Below are positions 16,749 through 43,091 of a stretch of 64,000 nucleotides of DNA, piece by piece (position 1 is the stretch's first letter; each line of letters starts with the position of its first letter). The DNA lies in contig JBDTNH010000001.1 of NCBI GenBank assembly GCA_039933845.1, positions 5,426-69,425 of the forward strand. The letters run 5' to 3'. A program made the position numbers and the translations under genes. The notes under the pieces are model-generated. The model was given only the letters and a program-made list of their open reading frames with translations. It was not told the DNA's origin and ran no database searches. This stretch comes from Gemmatimonadota bacterium. GTDB taxonomy: Bacteria; Gemmatimonadota; Gemmatimonadetes; Gemmatimonadales; GWC2-71-9.

Positions 16749-16776
16749 CCCCCCGACCCGCCACCCCCCACCACCC
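16749..16776 (-). other. G-quadruplex-capable G-tract in the gpx leader
   Basis: The minus strand reads GGGTGGTGGGGGGTGGCGGGTCGGGGGG, with at least four G3+ tracts and 1-3 nt loops. It lies 21-48 nt upstream of the gpx ATG. Confidence 0.4.
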
Positions 16777-16810
16777 TTGCCACTTGCCACTTGCCACTTG
16801 CCACTTGCCG
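16776..16810. repeat. Heptanucleotide tandem repeat, CTTGCCA x5 (last unit CTTGCCG)
   Basis: Direct read: cttgcca at 16776, 16783, 16790 and 16797, and cttgccg at 16804. Upstream of gpx (sense TGGCAAG). Confidence 0.9.
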
Positions 16811-33830: not shown

Positions 33831-33917
33831 CTCGCTTCTCGCTTCTCACTTCTCGCTTCTCGCCTCTCGCTTCTCGCTTCTCGTTTCTCGGTTCTCACTT
33901 CTCACTTCTCACTTCTT
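33831..33917. repeat. Heptanucleotide tandem array, 12.4 units of CTCRCTT (sense on minus strand: AAGYGAG)
   Basis: Direct read from 33831: ctcgctt x2, ctcactt, ctcgctt, ctcgcct, ctcgctt x2, ctcgttt, ctcggtt, ctcactt x3, ctt. It overlaps the last 6 codons and stop of ORF 33895..35100. Confidence 0.95.
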
Positions 33918-38140: not shown

Positions 38141-38978
38141 GTGGCGGTCCGAGCAAGCGGGCCGCCCCGTGCAGAAACCGTCGTGAGGCGCCTCGTCGCC
38201 GATCGGCTCGGTCAGCGAGCGCCTGGGCAAATCTCCGACGCGCGGAACCAGCACCGAACTGCGCCTCGATCGTCTCATGCATCAGTCGGACCGTGAGGTA
38301 CCACCGACGCAGGGTGAACCAATCCCGGGAATTGATCGAACCGGGATTCCCGACGGCGTAATCAATGGCTATCTCCGGAGCGAACACCAGTGGTCCCGCC
38401 TGAGCAATCAGTCGAACGATCAAGACCCAATCCTCAATCAGCATCCGCTCGGGGGGCCACCCACCGGCCGCCTCGAGTGGCGCTCGGCGAAACAACATCG
38501 CACTCGGAATGGTGTGACTCCGGACGATTGCCTCCCGAAGCGTGAGCAGCGACGGTTTGGTGGCTAAGGTGTCGCGCGGACCATCAGGCCAACACCTCGT
38601 GATCGCGGAATAGACCGCTGGAGCCTGAGCACATGCGACAAGTCGCGCCGACATGGCCTCCAGGAAATTGGGGGGCCAGCCGTCATCGGCATCCAGGAAT
38701 GCGATGAGTGGAGTGGGCATCGCGGCCATCCCCACACGACGAGCTTCTCCCACACCCGCATTGCGGGGCAACCGAATCAGTTCCACTCCGTCCGGCAGTG
38801 CCGCCAACGATCGTGACTCCCCATCAGGGCTGCCGTCGTCCACCACCACAATCCGGTCCGGCCGCCTGGTCTGCGCCAGCACGCTGGCCAATGTCGCCGG
38901 AAAAGTCCGGTCAGCCCTGTAAAAGGGGATCACTACCCCGATCTCGGGGGGCAGGTGGGAGTGACGTTCTGGGGACAT
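38127..38978 (-). CDS. Glycosyltransferase family 2
   Basis: VVIPFYRADRTFPATLASVLAQT...IVVVDDGSPD...AFLDADD (GT2 DxD). Confidence 0.8.
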   Translation of the reverse strand: MSPERHSHLPPEIGVVIPFYRADRTFPATLASVLAQTRRPDRIVVVDDGSPDGESRSLAALPDGVELIRLPRNAGVGEARRVGMAAMPTPLIAFLDADDGWPPNFLEAMSARLVACAQAPAVYSAITRCWPDGPRDTLATKPSLLTLREAIVRSHTIPSAMLFRRAPLEAAGGWPPERMLIEDWVLIVRLIAQAGPLVFAPEIAIDYAVGNPGSINSRDWFTLRRWYLTVRLMHETIEAQFGAGSARRRFAQALADRADRRRGASRRFLHGAARLLGPPLRDG

Positions 38979-39088
38979 GATGACCGGAAGATGGCAAGAA
39001 GTCGGCCGACCGGTTGAGATTGACGCAGTACCTGCTTCGGGATATGTTCGGTGTCACCGCCCAAACATGCCCGAAAGCCGGCCACCAG

Positions 39089-39283
39089 ATGATCGCCACG
39101 CTCCCCATCCTCGCTGCCACCCGCCAGCTTGCTACTGCCATCGCGGCATCTGGCGTCTGCCTCCACGACGACGAAGTCCCTCTGCCGCCGCCCTCACCCT
39201 CCTGCCCTGACTGCGGCACGATCCTCTTCCGCGCCTCGGCGTGCATCACCTGTCCCGGGTGTGGGTGGGGCAAGTGCAACTGA
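39089..39283 (+). CDS. Small zinc-ribbon protein (hypothetical)
   Basis: ORF 39014..39283 (TTG). The ATG at 39089 gives 64 aa ending CPDCGTILFRASACITCPGCGWGKCN (CxxC...CxxC). GC3-rich codons. The TGA is followed immediately by the heptamer array. Confidence 0.4.
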   Translation: MIATLPILAATRQLATAIAASGVCLHDDEVPLPPPSPSCPDCGTILFRASACITCPGCGWGKCN

Positions 39284-40308
39284 AAGCGAGAAGCGAGAGG
39301 CGAGAAGCGAGGTCCTCGTCAGACTGGCTCACCCTCCACCGCACCACTCGCGGCACCGAGTTCATCGGCATCGTCCCGACCCGGGTCCTCAACCCTCCCG
39401 GTGCCACCGGCATGCGGTTCTGGTCGCTCAATCCGTATGTCGGCTGCGAGTTTGGCTGCTCGTACTGCTATGCGCGTGAGACCCACCAATGGACCGTCGA
39501 ACGTGCCGCCAACCAACGCGATGCGCCCGCTGCCGCACGCGAGGCCGCGACACTCCCGATCGCCACAGGTTTCGAGCGACGGATCCTGGTCAAGGAGTCG
39601 GCACCCGAGATCCTCGCTCGCACCCTCGACCCCGTCAGGCTCGGCGACACACCGGTCGTGATCGGTTCGGCAACCGATCCGTATCAACCAGCCGAGCGGA
39701 GATTCGAGGTCACCAGGCGAATGCTTGAAGTGTTCCTGAAGTACGAGGGGCTGCACATCGGGATCATCACCAAGTCGGCACTGATTGCGCGCGACACTGC
39801 GCTGCTCGCGATGCTCGCGCGTCGTCATGATGTCTCGGTGCACTTCTCGATCGGTTCACTCGATGGCGCGTTGCTGAGACAACTCGAACCGCGCAGTGCG
39901 GCTCCAGCGGCCAGGCTCCGGGTCTTGCGCAAGCTGACCGATGCCGGTGTGCGCTGTGACGTATTGATCATGCCGATCCTGCCGGGGTTGACCGATGGCG
40001 AGCCTGAACTGCGCGAGGTGGTCAATGGCGCCAAGTCCGCGGGAGCGACCTCCGTGGCCGGCGGTGCGGTCCGGATGGGGCCTGCCACGCGCAACACGCT
40101 GCTGCCCTGGCTGGACCAACACCGGCCCGCACTCGCGGCGCGGTATCGATCACACTTCCGTGAACGTCAGTATGTCTCGAAGCGGTACGGCAAGGCGCTC
40201 CACGCGCGGCTGGAAAGATTGCAACGGGAGGGAGGGTTTGTCGGTCGAGCACGCGTGACTGGTACCGGCGAGGCGAAACGAATGCAAGGCGATTTGTTTG
40301 CTGGATGA
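39241..40308 (+). CDS. Radical SAM protein, SplB/COG1533-like (PA0069-type)
   Basis: SLNPYVGCEFGCSYCYAR (CxxxCxxC cluster), with the preceding VPTRVLNP region typical of this family. The start is uncertain. GTG 39241/39259/39265/39274 all lie 5' of the heptamer array, and the next ATG is 39412. Confidence 0.7.
   Translation: MHHLSRVWVGQVQLKARSERREARSSSDWLTLHRTTRGTEFIGIVPTRVLNPPGATGMRFWSLNPYVGCEFGCSYCYARETHQWTVERAANQRDAPAAAREAATLPIATGFERRILVKESAPEILARTLDPVRLGDTPVVIGSATDPYQPAERRFEVTRRMLEVFLKYEGLHIGIITKSALIARDTALLAMLARRHDVSVHFSIGSLDGALLRQLEPRSAAPAARLRVLRKLTDAGVRCDVLIMPILPGLTDGEPELREVVNGAKSAGATSVAGGAVRMGPATRNTLLPWLDQHRPALAARYRSHFRERQYVSKRYGKALHARLERLQREGGFVGRARVTGTGEAKRMQGDLFAG
39284..39311. repeat. 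Heptanucleotide tandem array, 4 units AAGCGAG/AGGCGAG (same family as 33831, opposite orientation)
   Basis: Direct read: aagcgag, aagcgag, aggcgag, aagcgag. Confidence 0.9.
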
Positions 40309-40311
40309 GGC

Positions 40312-40351
40312 CACTTCTCACTTCTCACTTCTCACTTCTCACTTCTCACTT
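40312..40351. repeat. Heptanucleotide tandem array, 5.7 units CTCACTT
   Basis: Direct read: cactt + ctcactt x5. It fills the 41-bp gap between the convergent stops TGA 40306-08 (+) and TAA 40350-52 (-). Confidence 0.95.
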
Positions 40352-43091
40352 AATCGACCGGCCGGTTGATGCCACCCACCACCAGCGCCTCGAAGCGCGG
40401 GTTCCCCTTGAGCGGCTTGAAGAGCGGGTCGGCGCGCAGATAGCCGCGCGTCACGTAGTACTGCCGGTTCACCAGCTGTTCCAACCCATCGAGTGCCTTG
40501 TTGGTCTCGCCGATCGCCATCTGAGCCCGGATCCATTGCTGCAGGACATAGTTGGCGTTGTTGGCGCTGGACCCGACTGTGTCAGCAAGTGCCCGATCGG
40601 CCTCACGCGCCGCGTCGGCCTTCCGCCCGACGTAGCCGAGCATCACGGCATTGAGCATCCTGAGCTGTGGGTCGGTCGGGTTGGCATCGATCTGCTGTTG
40701 AGCGGTCACAAGCGAAGAATCCGCGAACGCGCGAGCCCGGGCCATGTCGCCCTCTTGCATCGCGGTCATCGCGATCGCCTGGCCCCACCATGCCCGATCG
40801 TTGTCAAACGCCGCTGGCGTCATCCGATAGAGCAATTCGCGCTCCTTGGGGCCGAGCACGAAGCCCATTTCCTGATAGCCTGCGAAGTAGGTCACGAAAT
40901 CGGTGACCGGCACCCGCTTGAGCAGCTCCTGAACCACGCGTCGCGCGCCGGTCGTGTCGCCATTGACCAGGTGCGCGTTGACGATCCACTGCATCTGATC
41001 GTAGGCCGTCGGCTCGAGCGCCATCAGCTCCTCGCTGGTGGCCTGTGCCTCGGTATGCTGCCCAAGGTAGATCTGGGCCCGGATCAGGTTCGTGAGCACG
41101 CCCGTCGCGCGCGGGTTGAGTTCGCGCGCCTTCGAAAGCTTCTCGAACATCGGTCGGTAGTTGCCTTGGAGCAAATCGGCCTGTGCGGACGACGTCAGCG
41201 CCCAGATACTCTTCGGGTCGAGCTCGAGTGCCCGCTCGGTTTCCCGCCGTGCCGCGGCCTGATCGCGAGTGACGTCAGTGTAGAAGGAGGCGGCGATCAT
41301 GTGTGCCCCGGAGCTGTCGGGTGCCAACTGCATCACCTTCTCCATCGCCTCCTTGGCACGCCGACCGATCACGGGATCACGGGTCCCATTCGCATAGGCA
41401 ATCGTGAGATTGAACGCCAGCGAACCCCACGCCCAGACGAAGTTCGAGTCGAGCGCCACCGCCTGCTCATACAGCGCTGCTCGCGCTTTCGCGGCGCCAG
41501 GCGTACCGCCCTTGATGGCCTGTGCCCGCAGGAAGATGTCGTACGCCTCGTCGTTCTGGGTCGGCCGAGCGGCCAGGTCCTTGGTCTGATCGGCTCGGAG
41601 CGCCAGTCCGAGCGCACCCGCCACCCGCGTCGCGATGCGGCCCTGGATCTCGAATGCGTCGGTCATGTCGGCATCGAAACTGTCACGCCACGTGACCTTG
41701 CCCGTCTCGCCGTTGACCAGCTCCGTGGTCACCCGGACTTGTCGGACACCGTTTGCGCCGGTCGCCCAGCGCACCTTCCCCATCAGCACCTGATCGACGC
41801 GCAGCTCACCGGCGATCTCGGTGGCCGTCTTGGTCGTCTCGCGGTACTGATCGGAGCTCGCCGAGGCGATGACGGTGAGCGAGTCGAGGCGGGCGAGCTT
41901 GTCGCGCAGCTCGTCGACGATGCCGTCGGCGAAGTAGGCGTCCTCGGCCGCGCCCTGGTTCTCGAATGGCAGCACCGCGACGCTCCGGATCGGCGAGCTG
42001 GCGTTGCCGCCAACACCGAACGCCTTCCAGCCCAGCGCGCCGACCAGCAGCACCCCGGCGGCCATCGCCACGTATTGCCATTTCTTGAAACCTTGGGCAG
42101 GCATCGCCGCCGTCGCACCCGAGCCGGTCCGTGCCATATCCTCGGCGGTGGTGAGTGCGGTGGCCATTTCGCCGGCGGTGGTATAGCGGTCGGCCGGCGC
42201 CTTGGCGAGTGCCCGCATCACGGCGCTGTCGACCACCGGTGGCAGCGATTCGCGCGTCAACGTGAGCGCACGCGGCTTCTCGGTGATGCTCCGCGTGATG
42301 ATCGCCTGCGCAGTGGGCCCCGTGAACGGCGGTTCGCCGGCCAGCATCTCATAGAGTACGCAACCGAGCGCGTAGATGTCGCTCCGGCCGTCGAGGTTCG
42401 GATCGCCACTCGCCTGCTCAGGGCTCATGTATTGCGGCGTGCCGATGGCGAGGCCGGTCTGGGTCAGCGCCTTCGCATCGCCACTACTCGTCGCGCGCGC
42501 GATCCCGAAGTCGGCCACGAGCGCGTGACCCGCACTCATCAAAATATTGGCCGGCTTGATGTCGCGGTGCACGATCCCCCGTGCATGCGCATACGCCAGT
42601 GCCTCCGCGACCTCACGAGCAATCCGGAGTGCCTCACCGACCGGCAGCTGCTTCTCGCGCTTGAGACGGGCCGGCAGTGAGTCGCCTTCGACCACCGGCA
42701 TCACGTAGTAGAGCACGCCCTGGGCGCTGCCGGAGTCGTAGACCGGCAGGATATTCGGATGGCTCAGCTTCGCCGCGATCTCGACCTCGCGCAGGAACCG
42801 CTCTGACCCGAGCGTCTCCGCGAGCTCGGGCCGCATCACCTTGACCGCCACCTTGCGGCGATGCTTCAGGTCTTCGGCCAAGTAAACCGTCGCCATGCCG
42901 CCTTCGCCCAGCACACCCTCGATCTTGTAGCGATCGGCGAGTGCAGCGCGGATCCGCGACACCTCGATCGCACCGGTCGGCATGGTGCGCTCAGGCACTC
43001 CGGGTTCGGTCGGGGTGGGGTTGCCGCAGTTGGGGCAGAAGTGCACTCCGGCATGCAGCTCGGTCTGGCAGGATGGGCAGGTCATGGTCAT
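40350..43091 (-). CDS. Ser/Thr protein kinase with N-terminal zinc ribbon, TM, TolB-N-like module and TPR repeats
   Basis: MTMTCPSCQTELHAGVHFCPNCG. GEGGMATVYLAED, VAVKVM, HRDIKPANILM, VADFGIA, GTPQYMSPE. TM segment YVAMAAGVLLVGALGW. VAVLPFENQGAAEDAYFADGIVDELR. ATG 43091 overlaps the upstream stop by 1 nt. Confidence 0.85.
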   Translation of the reverse strand: MTMTCPSCQTELHAGVHFCPNCGNPTPTEPGVPERTMPTGAIEVSRIRAALADRYKIEGVLGEGGMATVYLAEDLKHRRKVAVKVMRPELAETLGSERFLREVEIAAKLSHPNILPVYDSGSAQGVLYYVMPVVEGDSLPARLKREKQLPVGEALRIAREVAEALAYAHARGIVHRDIKPANILMSAGHALVADFGIARATSSGDAKALTQTGLAIGTPQYMSPEQASGDPNLDGRSDIYALGCVLYEMLAGEPPFTGPTAQAIITRSITEKPRALTLTRESLPPVVDSAVMRALAKAPADRYTTAGEMATALTTAEDMARTGSGATAAMPAQGFKKWQYVAMAAGVLLVGALGWKAFGVGGNASSPIRSVAVLPFENQGAAEDAYFADGIVDELRDKLARLDSLTVIASASSDQYRETTKTATEIAGELRVDQVLMGKVRWATGANGVRQVRVTTELVNGETGKVTWRDSFDADMTDAFEIQGRIATRVAGALGLALRADQTKDLAARPTQNDEAYDIFLRAQAIKGGTPGAAKARAALYEQAVALDSNFVWAWGSLAFNLTIAYANGTRDPVIGRRAKEAMEKVMQLAPDSSGAHMIAASFYTDVTRDQAAARRETERALELDPKSIWALTSSAQADLLQGNYRPMFEKLSKARELNPRATGVLTNLIRAQIYLGQHTEAQATSEELMALEPTAYDQMQWIVNAHLVNGDTTGARRVVQELLKRVPVTDFVTYFAGYQEMGFVLGPKERELLYRMTPAAFDNDRAWWGQAIAMTAMQEGDMARARAFADSSLVTAQQQIDANPTDPQLRMLNAVMLGYVGRKADAAREADRALADTVGSSANNANYVLQQWIRAQMAIGETNKALDGLEQLVNRQYYVTRGYLRADPLFKPLKGNPRFEALVVGGINRPVD

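Follow-up and report, generated by a model that had tools for sequence, protein, structure and literature searches.

Short repeats residing in or next to bacterial genes have been described in several forms. Cyanobacterial STRR sequences are tandem heptamers that occur at many sites of a genome, often by gene ends, and can form extended helices. REP/REPIN elements feature two inverted copies arranged around a short spacer, thus giving a long hairpin, and are present in many copies per genome; each REPIN family has approximately 35 nt of conserved sequence, is confined to extragenic DNA, and requires a RAYT transposase. Two further systems involve coding sequences. In Escherichia coli K1, the neuO gene carries an AAGACTC repeat 2 nt after its start codon and is ON only for repeat numbers that are multiples of three; alleles featuring 2 to 93 copies and both the ON and the OFF state have been documented (PMC3046976). 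Rickettsia palindromic elements (RPEs) are hairpin-forming repeats located in frame inside open reading frames (ORFs), where they encode peptide segments at tolerant positions (PMC10969869). In this study, an array of four AAGCGAG-type heptamers was analyzed, which is located at positions 39284 to 39311 of a 64,000-nt stretch of DNA from a Gemmatimonadota bacterium (contig JBDTNH010000001.1, order Gemmatimonadales; hereafter, the window), between a small zinc-ribbon (ZR) gene and the conserved core of a radical S-adenosylmethionine (radical SAM, rSAM) gene. The array is probably a short tandem repeat of a type typical of this lineage, which is translated in frame as part of the dispensable N-terminal leader of the rSAM enzyme.

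The locus resembles neuO, a 5'-coding heptanucleotide variable-number tandem repeat (poly-psi motif, (AAGACTC)n), in that a 7-nt, i.e., non-triplet, repeat lies inside the ORF a few nucleotides past the start codon. In both cases, the in-frame repeat provides a variable N-terminal extension not needed for the fold, and unit changes that are no multiple of three frameshift the enzyme. However, neuO copies are perfect, whereas the window features four copies, one of them imperfect, and no length polymorphism or OFF allele was found in its relatives; ON and OFF length alleles among strains were thus not observed, the data being consensus assemblies. Moreover, the repeat of the window belongs to a genome-wide class, members of which are often paired with an inverted copy. 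In-frame residence at tolerated positions, here the leader and a loop behind the CxxxCxxC motif of the enzyme, is shared with RPEs. The latter are approximately 150 bp long and have a family consensus and a conserved peptide, whereas the arrays described here are periodic (7–8 nt), and their units vary between genomes and partly between sites, rather than following a single dispersed consensus with its peptide. The dispersed tandem heptamers also recall STRR sequences, but the resemblance is functional only: the arrays reside in Gemmatimonadota, periods of 7 and 8 are mixed, and many arrays are paired with an inverted partner or located in frame within ORFs. The units AAGYGAG and CTTGCCA presumably differ from those of STRR sequences, and the arrays were not assigned to them. 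With REP/REPIN elements, the arrays share inverted copies flanking a spacer and the resulting hairpin; REPIN-specific traits were neither seen nor tested here.

Translation of the array and start of the radical SAM gene

On the forward strand, the four units read AAGCGAG, AAGCGAG, AGGCGAG, and AAGCGAG, the third being imperfect and the longest perfect run comprising two units. The program TRF reported a period of 7, 4.0 copies, 90% matches, and a score of 49. The array abuts the stop codon TGA (39281–39283) of the ZR gene, in agreement with the sequence-only reading, in which four AAGCGAG-type units right behind this codon had been noticed. In the rSAM frame it is read as KARSERREAR (K-ARSERREAR in the leader). 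In relatives, its counterpart is the G/purine-rich arm located 5' in a pair of inverted arrays, and the adjoining segment gtcCTCGTCa (39312–39321, forward strand) of the window is a short remnant of the reverse (C-rich) arm, as deduced from comparison with the leader of locus L001.

Approximately 110 Gemmatimonadales loci encoding ZR and rSAM proteins, 103 of them non-redundant, were compared. For each locus obtained, the leader distance was defined as the interval separating the conserved NPY codon from the end of the ZR stop. Within the ZR clade of the window (C-terminus GWG.C), 59 out of 66 non-redundant loci featured a distance of 2 mod 3, spread over 22 distinct values between 107 and 485 nt, while 26 out of 30 loci of the sister clade (GWARC) were 1 mod 3, with 12 distinct distances. 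All 59 in-frame loci of the window's clade possess ATG, GTG, or TTG at position −10 and/or −4 relative to the end of the ZR stop, and 58 of them are stop-free up to the core; in the sister clade, GTG occurs at −8, inside tGTGgcTGA, in 25 out of 26 cases. At the few out-of-frame loci, a separate ATG or GTG follows the stop, or the start of the other clade (−8) is in use. For the window's own clade, distances of 113, 146, 188 (twice), 191 (four times), 194 (twice), and 221 nt were determined, all of them being 2 mod 3, and the array-bearing segments of close pairs (93–98% core identity) differ by 3, 15, 27, and 57 nt, all multiples of 3. Eight further relatives of the window's clade, identified by protein look-up, were likewise open and in frame from a ZR-overlapping start. 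Since the frame between the ZR stop and the core is kept over many leader lengths, along with a conserved overlapping start, the array is almost certainly translated inside the rSAM ORF, as judged from these comparisons, and the earlier suggestion that it would be read as KARSERREAR if upstream starts are used was thereby borne out. Frame retention may be due to purifying selection. Furthermore, QLxLLP was found inside the leader of 78 out of 103 loci and is kept as a protein motif with synonymous codon variation, indicating that the leader is translated. Fusion of ZR and rSAM by programmed frameshifting was considered and rejected, because the two clades represent opposite frame offsets, each with a conserved start codon.

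A start-codon scan confirmed that all canonical in-frame rSAM starts upstream of the core, namely GTG 39241, 39259, 39265, and 39274 (offsets −43, −25, −19, and −10 from the end of the ZR stop at 39283), are located 5' of the array. No ATG, GTG, or TTG is present in this frame from the array end at 39311 to ATG 39412 (offset +128), the next canonical start. The likeliest initiation codon is GTG 39274–39276 (forward strand), since position −10 is occupied by ATG, GTG, or TTG in 53 of the 59 in-frame orthologs. This codon lies 7 nt ahead of the ZR TGA, the array begins 7 nt after it, and its equivalent was chosen as the gene start for protein P0001. Comparative data hence favor an rSAM gene at 39274–40308 (forward strand) encoding 344 aa with the predicted N-terminus (M)QLKARSERREAR, instead of the 355 aa annotated by NCBI from GTG 39241 (MEO8478024.1) or a start at Met58 of the latter ORF (ATG 39412–39414). 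This would correct the gene start to a codon overlapping the ZR gene. At −4, where many orthologs have ATG or GTG, the window has CTG (39280–39282, forward strand), which, judged from these orthologs, occupies the ancestral overlap position (NTGA with the ZR stop) and is a possible near-cognate reinitiation site.

Across orthologs, the rSAM start is thus found within or overlapping the 3' end of the ZR gene in a fixed frame. Because it is buried in the last ZR codons, the two genes are probably translationally coupled, as can be proposed from the gene arrangement. In this respect, essentially all orthologs resemble ATGA/GTGA-type coupled gene pairs; the window differs from such pairs in that its NTGA codon is CTG and the usable GTG is located 7 nt before the stop.

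Start calls for this rSAM family are inconsistent among metagenome-assembled genomes (MAGs), GTG 39241 being used in the public annotation of the window and Met58 in orthologs by other callers, which calls for practical caution in gene calling and MAG annotation in Gemmatimonadota. In four of the eight additional relatives mentioned above, the gene start had been placed at the equivalent of Met58. Since all of 35 homologs share Met58, it represents an internal residue. The conserved N-terminal segment preceding it, DWLTLHRTTRGTEFIGIVPTRVLNPPGATG (39322–39411, forward strand), comprises 30 residues modeled with a pLDDT of approximately 90 and two confidently predicted beta-strands, both of which would be removed by a start at Met58. 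Conservation and the AlphaFold2 model accordingly agree with the previous claim that a start at ATG 39412 would delete a family-typical segment. In the model of the 355-aa ORF (mean pLDDT 82.7), residues 1–26 are below 50, and the confident fold begins at strand 30–34 (WLTLH), just past the array-encoded residues 15–24.

The protein matched PF04055 with 53 bits (gathering cut-off 29.5), which places it in the radical SAM superfamily, and its CxxxCxxC cluster motif, CEFGCSYC, is encoded at 39445–39468 (forward strand), as supported by sequence and domain match. Scores of 214 bits for NCBIfam NF033668 (cut-off 360) and 205 bits for NF038135 (cut-off 430) indicate that the protein is related to the PA0069 / Rv2578c families, but not a member by the NCBI criterion. 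Its homologs are Gemmatimonadota proteins labeled 'DNA repair photolyase' or 'SPL family radical SAM', so that the designation 'housekeeping-type' given at first sight did not hold; by homology, the enzyme is SPL/COG1533 'DNA repair photolyase'-like. A PDB sequence search returned no match.

Origin of the leader array and the repeat class in Gemmatimonadales

The window protein and P0001 were the only members in a 90%-identity cluster look-up, and a metagenome scan for close relatives yielded one locus at 70% identity (L083), the others being at approximately 50%. The sole near-identical sequence, L002 (98% identity), features the same four units. As had been recommended in the sequence-only reading, orthologs were inspected for an array, an N-terminal extension, and its frame. 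The leader of L083 is devoid of an array (VRMTTPWMEL, 113 nt), and that of the window is 33 nt longer. All loci of the window's clade other than L083 have a longer leader, mostly with recognizable forward and reverse arrays. In L001, L164, L165, L168, and L169, an array of heptamers in forward orientation (e.g., GAGAAGC, CGAGAGA, GCGAAGG, or AGCGAAC) is followed by a spacer and a complementary reverse array (e.g., CTCTCGT, CTCACGT, CTTCGCC, or GATCGCC). Paired arrays are also present in L163, with a less regular period, and the leaders of L166, L167, and L170 are similarly long, with degenerate repeats. The window leader is of the L001 type but has lost its spacer and the bulk of its reverse array; with 45 nt missing, the two leaders differ in frame-preserving fashion.

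In other Gemmatimonadales, the paired arms frequently fold into a very stable hairpin. These comparisons suggest that the array of the window is what remains of a kind of repeat widespread among these soil bacteria and that it is tolerated in the gene. According to the proposed scenario, the rSAM gene would be read from a start codon buried in the final ZR codons, GTG 39274 in the window. Because this start is fixed upstream, any insert between it and the core would have to be stop-free and to total a multiple of 3 nt; the conserved core begins at DWLTL, and insertions before it would be constrained in frame. The window would have retained the forward arm alone, i.e., four units and the CTCGTC remnant. 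The expected product is a leader extended by 11 residues, disordered, rich in Arg, Glu, and Ser, and without conserved sequence. Gain or loss of one or two units would abolish the enzyme, and such variants would be purged rather than used as a switch.

Several observations weigh against translation of the array from GTG 39274 as a mere tolerated repeat. Only a weak Shine-Dalgarno-like G-run (GGGTGGGG) is found 3 nt upstream of this GTG, the −4 codon of the window is CTG and not a canonical start, and the choice of GTG 39274 was made by comparison. The clade of the window lacks QLxLLP, so that protein-level conservation of the leader is not directly demonstrable there. Low-level switching would be compatible with the absence of OFF alleles, because consensus assemblies hide a minority OFF subpopulation. 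Finally, this reading does not account for arrays of differing units having arisen repeatedly at three identical positions.

TRF-detectable arrays of period 7 or 8 were identified in 39 of the 103 leaders, the unit varying by lineage. Such arrays also occur in frame in the variable rSAM loop after CxxxCxxC (14 loci), right behind the rSAM stop codon (12 loci, the window among them), and at many further sites in the flanks of the loci (161 arrays). In total, TRF reported 75 rows of period 7 and 134 of period 8 in 902 kb, compared to none in a second-order Markov control. Arrays more than 300 nt apart on the same contig share their unit in 34% of pairs vs. 9.6% between loci. Unit families are partly genome-specific, and the arrays occupy tolerant in-frame linkers of protein-coding genes as well as gene ends. 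Stop-free spans of the arrays elsewhere were uninformative in this high-GC DNA (69% vs. 82% for random positions at 150 nt), and residence within an ORF is therefore claimed for the rSAM gene only.

Loop arrays were located in L055 (3213–3384) and also in L019, L020, L023, L084, L088, L092, L098, L103, L105, L110, L115, and L123. They are inserted at NPY +73 to +180 nt, between CYAR.TH.W..ER and FE..ILVK; several represent inverted pairs, and the ORFs are full length. With (GGCGATTG)n and (CCAATCGC)n, the loop of L055 is extended by approximately 55 residues. Between L115 and L123, whose cores are 98% identical, all units of loop and leader differ in concert, GGACGGAA vs. GGACGCAA, with a length difference of 27 nt, and both unit types were found at other sites of a related contig (L134, 1493–1569 and 2192–2220). 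This concerted change suggests concerted evolution or copying between sites, as far as can be deduced from the assembled loci. In all ten two-arm arrays (e.g., in L098, L157, L136, L150, and L055), the G-rich arm precedes the C-rich arm on the sense strand, an order which, by symmetry, is the same for both strands. The spacer separating the two arms of a leader in many cases encodes a conserved QLPLLP motif.

A tentative interpretation, for which we claim limited confidence, is that Gemmatimonadales carry an apparently undescribed class of self-complementary 7–8-nt tandem arrays ('periodic hairpins') made by an active process of copying (template switching or templated 3'-end addition, for example) and not by plain slippage. 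The array of the window would then be one decayed arm, and the frameshift-prone state of the rSAM gene would be a by-product. The literature searched contained no description of tandem 7–8-mer arrays in Gemmatimonadota, an absence that does not establish novelty. This repeat class and the conserved overlap of ZR and rSAM are the most interesting outcome of this analysis: in approximately 110 orthologous loci, variable linkers of one protein were repeatedly built from paired inverted 7–8-nt in-frame arrays, providing a tractable natural system for the origin, homogenization, and intragenic tolerance of hairpin-forming repeats.

An element resembling a miniature inverted-repeat transposable element, with the terminal inverted repeats GTCATCC(C/T)GA...TC(G/A)GGATGAC, adjoins arrays in L001 (6938–7040) and L055 (approximately 2745–2860). 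In L001, it is flanked by the rSAM stop and the 3' array; the L055 copy resides within the 485-nt ZR–rSAM spacer and interrupts the leader ORF.

Frameshift switching, hairpin function, and an untranslated array

It had also been proposed that gain or loss of one 7-bp unit would frameshift the enzyme and that the gene is a contingency (phase-variable) locus. The first part was reproduced by simulation: alleles with 1, 4, or 7 units encode the full enzyme, whereas those with 2, 3, 5, or 6 units yield out-of-frame products of 63 to 133 aa, so that changes by one or two units truncate the protein and a three-unit change restores the frame. The 7-bp repeat being a genuine part of the reading frame, the rSAM enzyme is one slippage event from inactivation. 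A contingency locus, in which frequent slipped-strand gain or loss of units would, as in neuO, turn the gene ON with 1, 4, or 7 units and OFF with any other number, would be consistent with a non-triplet repeat starting 7 nt after the likely start codon, with the lack of an alternative start from the array to the core, and with the fast evolution of the arrays, which differ even between 98%-identical cores.

The second part of the proposal was not supported. The array is short (four units, the third being imperfect) and unchanged in L002, the only 98%-identical sequence. The 35 non-redundant array-bearing leaders are all ON or have their own downstream ATG, the array being translated in 31 of them, and the eight further relatives of the window's clade likewise included no OFF configuration. 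Leader arrays comprise 3.9 copies in the median and 5.1 at most, while intergenic arrays reach 10 to 12. Length differences between close relatives are multiples of 3 nt and not single units. Since the repeat type is also present in an internal loop, after the stop codon, in intergenic gaps, and at unrelated loci, it is more readily seen as a general genomic repeat than as a dedicated switch. In addition, an SPL-like rSAM gene and the lifestyle of a soil MAG are atypical for contingency genes. Genes called from Met58 were also considered as OFF alleles, and this was rejected, because their DNA is open and in frame from the ZR-overlapping GTG. Phase variation at this locus is therefore possible but unsupported by the sequences compared, and we regard high-frequency switching as unlikely. 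If switching were demonstrated, a DNA-repair-type radical SAM enzyme from a free-living soil phylum would be subject to neuO-like contingency, which would be unusual.

A functional RNA or DNA hairpin formed by the paired arrays, serving ZR–rSAM coupling, mRNA stability, or ribosome pausing and represented in the window by a decayed half, appears rather improbable. Among 94 leaders, 27% fold far better than dinucleotide shuffles, with z-scores down to −6.7 and stems of 20–30 bp, the arms co-vary in unit sequence between lineages, and the G-rich arm is always located 5' in the ten two-arm cases. However, template switching or gene conversion would also predict such co-variation, function not being needed, and many orthologs feature one arm or none (L083, L096, L100, and L117). 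The leader of L001 folds weakly (z = −1.5), and that of the window showed no significant RNA structure (z = −0.38), on which grounds a hairpin function at the window locus was rejected. No matching Rfam family was found: the sole match in a scan of 38800–40500 was a sub-threshold chance hit (isrG, 13.9 bits vs. a cut-off of 100), indicating that this region is devoid of a known RNA element.

Hardly credible is an untranslated array (5' untranslated or intergenic), with the enzyme starting further downstream, either from ATG 39412 or from a non-canonical codon close to DWLTL, for while P0009, P0013, P0016, P0019, and P0027 were called from the Met58 equivalent and P0002 from a nearby GTG, and L020, L030, L031, and L055 possess a separate ATG beyond the forward array, such a start would leave the frame kept across more than 30 distinct leader lengths unexplained, the loci called from Met58 are in fact open from the ZR-overlapping GTG, Met58 itself is internal and preceded by conserved, confidently modeled residues, a canonical start is missing between 39311 and 39412, and, as weak evidence, a consensus scan of 38850–40450 revealed no promoter-like site between ZR and rSAM.

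Neighboring genes and further arrays of the window

The ZR gene (39089–39283, forward strand), the last codons of which hold the rSAM start, most likely begins at ATG 39089 and not at TTG 39014 of the mechanical ORF, and encodes 64 aa with the C-terminus CPDCG...CITCPGCGWGKCN ahead of the stop codon. Its C-terminal zinc ribbon is encoded directly upstream of rSAM in 103 non-redundant Gemmatimonadales loci, and the protein may be a partner of the rSAM enzyme. The ZR gene was found next to rSAM only in Gemmatimonadales, none being detected in loci of Acidobacteriota or Binataceae. Its conservation is confined to the last 28 residues or so, and this tail bears a weak similarity to the zinc ribbon at the C-terminus of B12-dependent (class II) ribonucleotide reductases (NF006417, with an E-value of 2e-5 and a score far below the cut-off). 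Upstream of the ZR ATG, a sigma-70-like promoter match (TTGACG-17-TATGTT; 39020–39048, forward strand) was identified, which is a consensus match only and the sole one in 38850–40450; no terminator-like site was found anywhere in the same interval.

When the window was searched with the two-unit 14-mer (at most two mismatches), 18 matches were obtained, compared to 0.62 expected, and this count was not reached in any of 100 shuffles. They are located at three loci, namely the leader array (39284–39311) and two arrays on the reverse strand, at 40312–40351 (5.7 copies) and 33831–33916 (12.3 copies). The former is a pure T-type array (AAGTGAG) between the convergent stop codons of rSAM (TGA 40306–40308) and a Ser/Thr kinase gene (TAA 40350–40352). 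It fills the entire 41-nt gap between these genes (40309–40352), beginning inside the kinase TAA, and has no inverted partner. The latter (AAGYGAG) represents a mix of T-type, C-type, and other variants between a beta-lactamase-family and a GNAT gene. Consequently, the division into stop-free C-type units within genes and TGA-containing T-type units at gene 3' ends, as drawn in the sequence-only reading, applies to 40312–40351, but not to the mixed array at 33831–33916 nor to the 3' array of the 87% ortholog L001, which is C-type (CTTCTCG).

The array at 33831–33916 fills the gap between the beta-lactamase-family and GNAT acetyltransferase genes, both being encoded on the same strand. The ORF upstream of it lacks its own stop and terminates at a TGA (33895–33897) provided by a T-type unit, and the GNAT start GTG (33821) is located 9 nt past the array end. 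In L164 and L165, the same gene pair is separated by a gap of 77 nt or overlaps by 8 nt. A fourth heptamer array, featuring another unit (CTTGCCA, 4.9 copies), was detected at 16776–16809. It comes after a C-rich tract (CCCCCCA-like; region 16750–16809) and precedes, by approximately 45 nt, the likely start codon (ATG) of a minus-strand glutathione-peroxidase-like gene, which places it in the promoter or 5' untranslated region of that gene.

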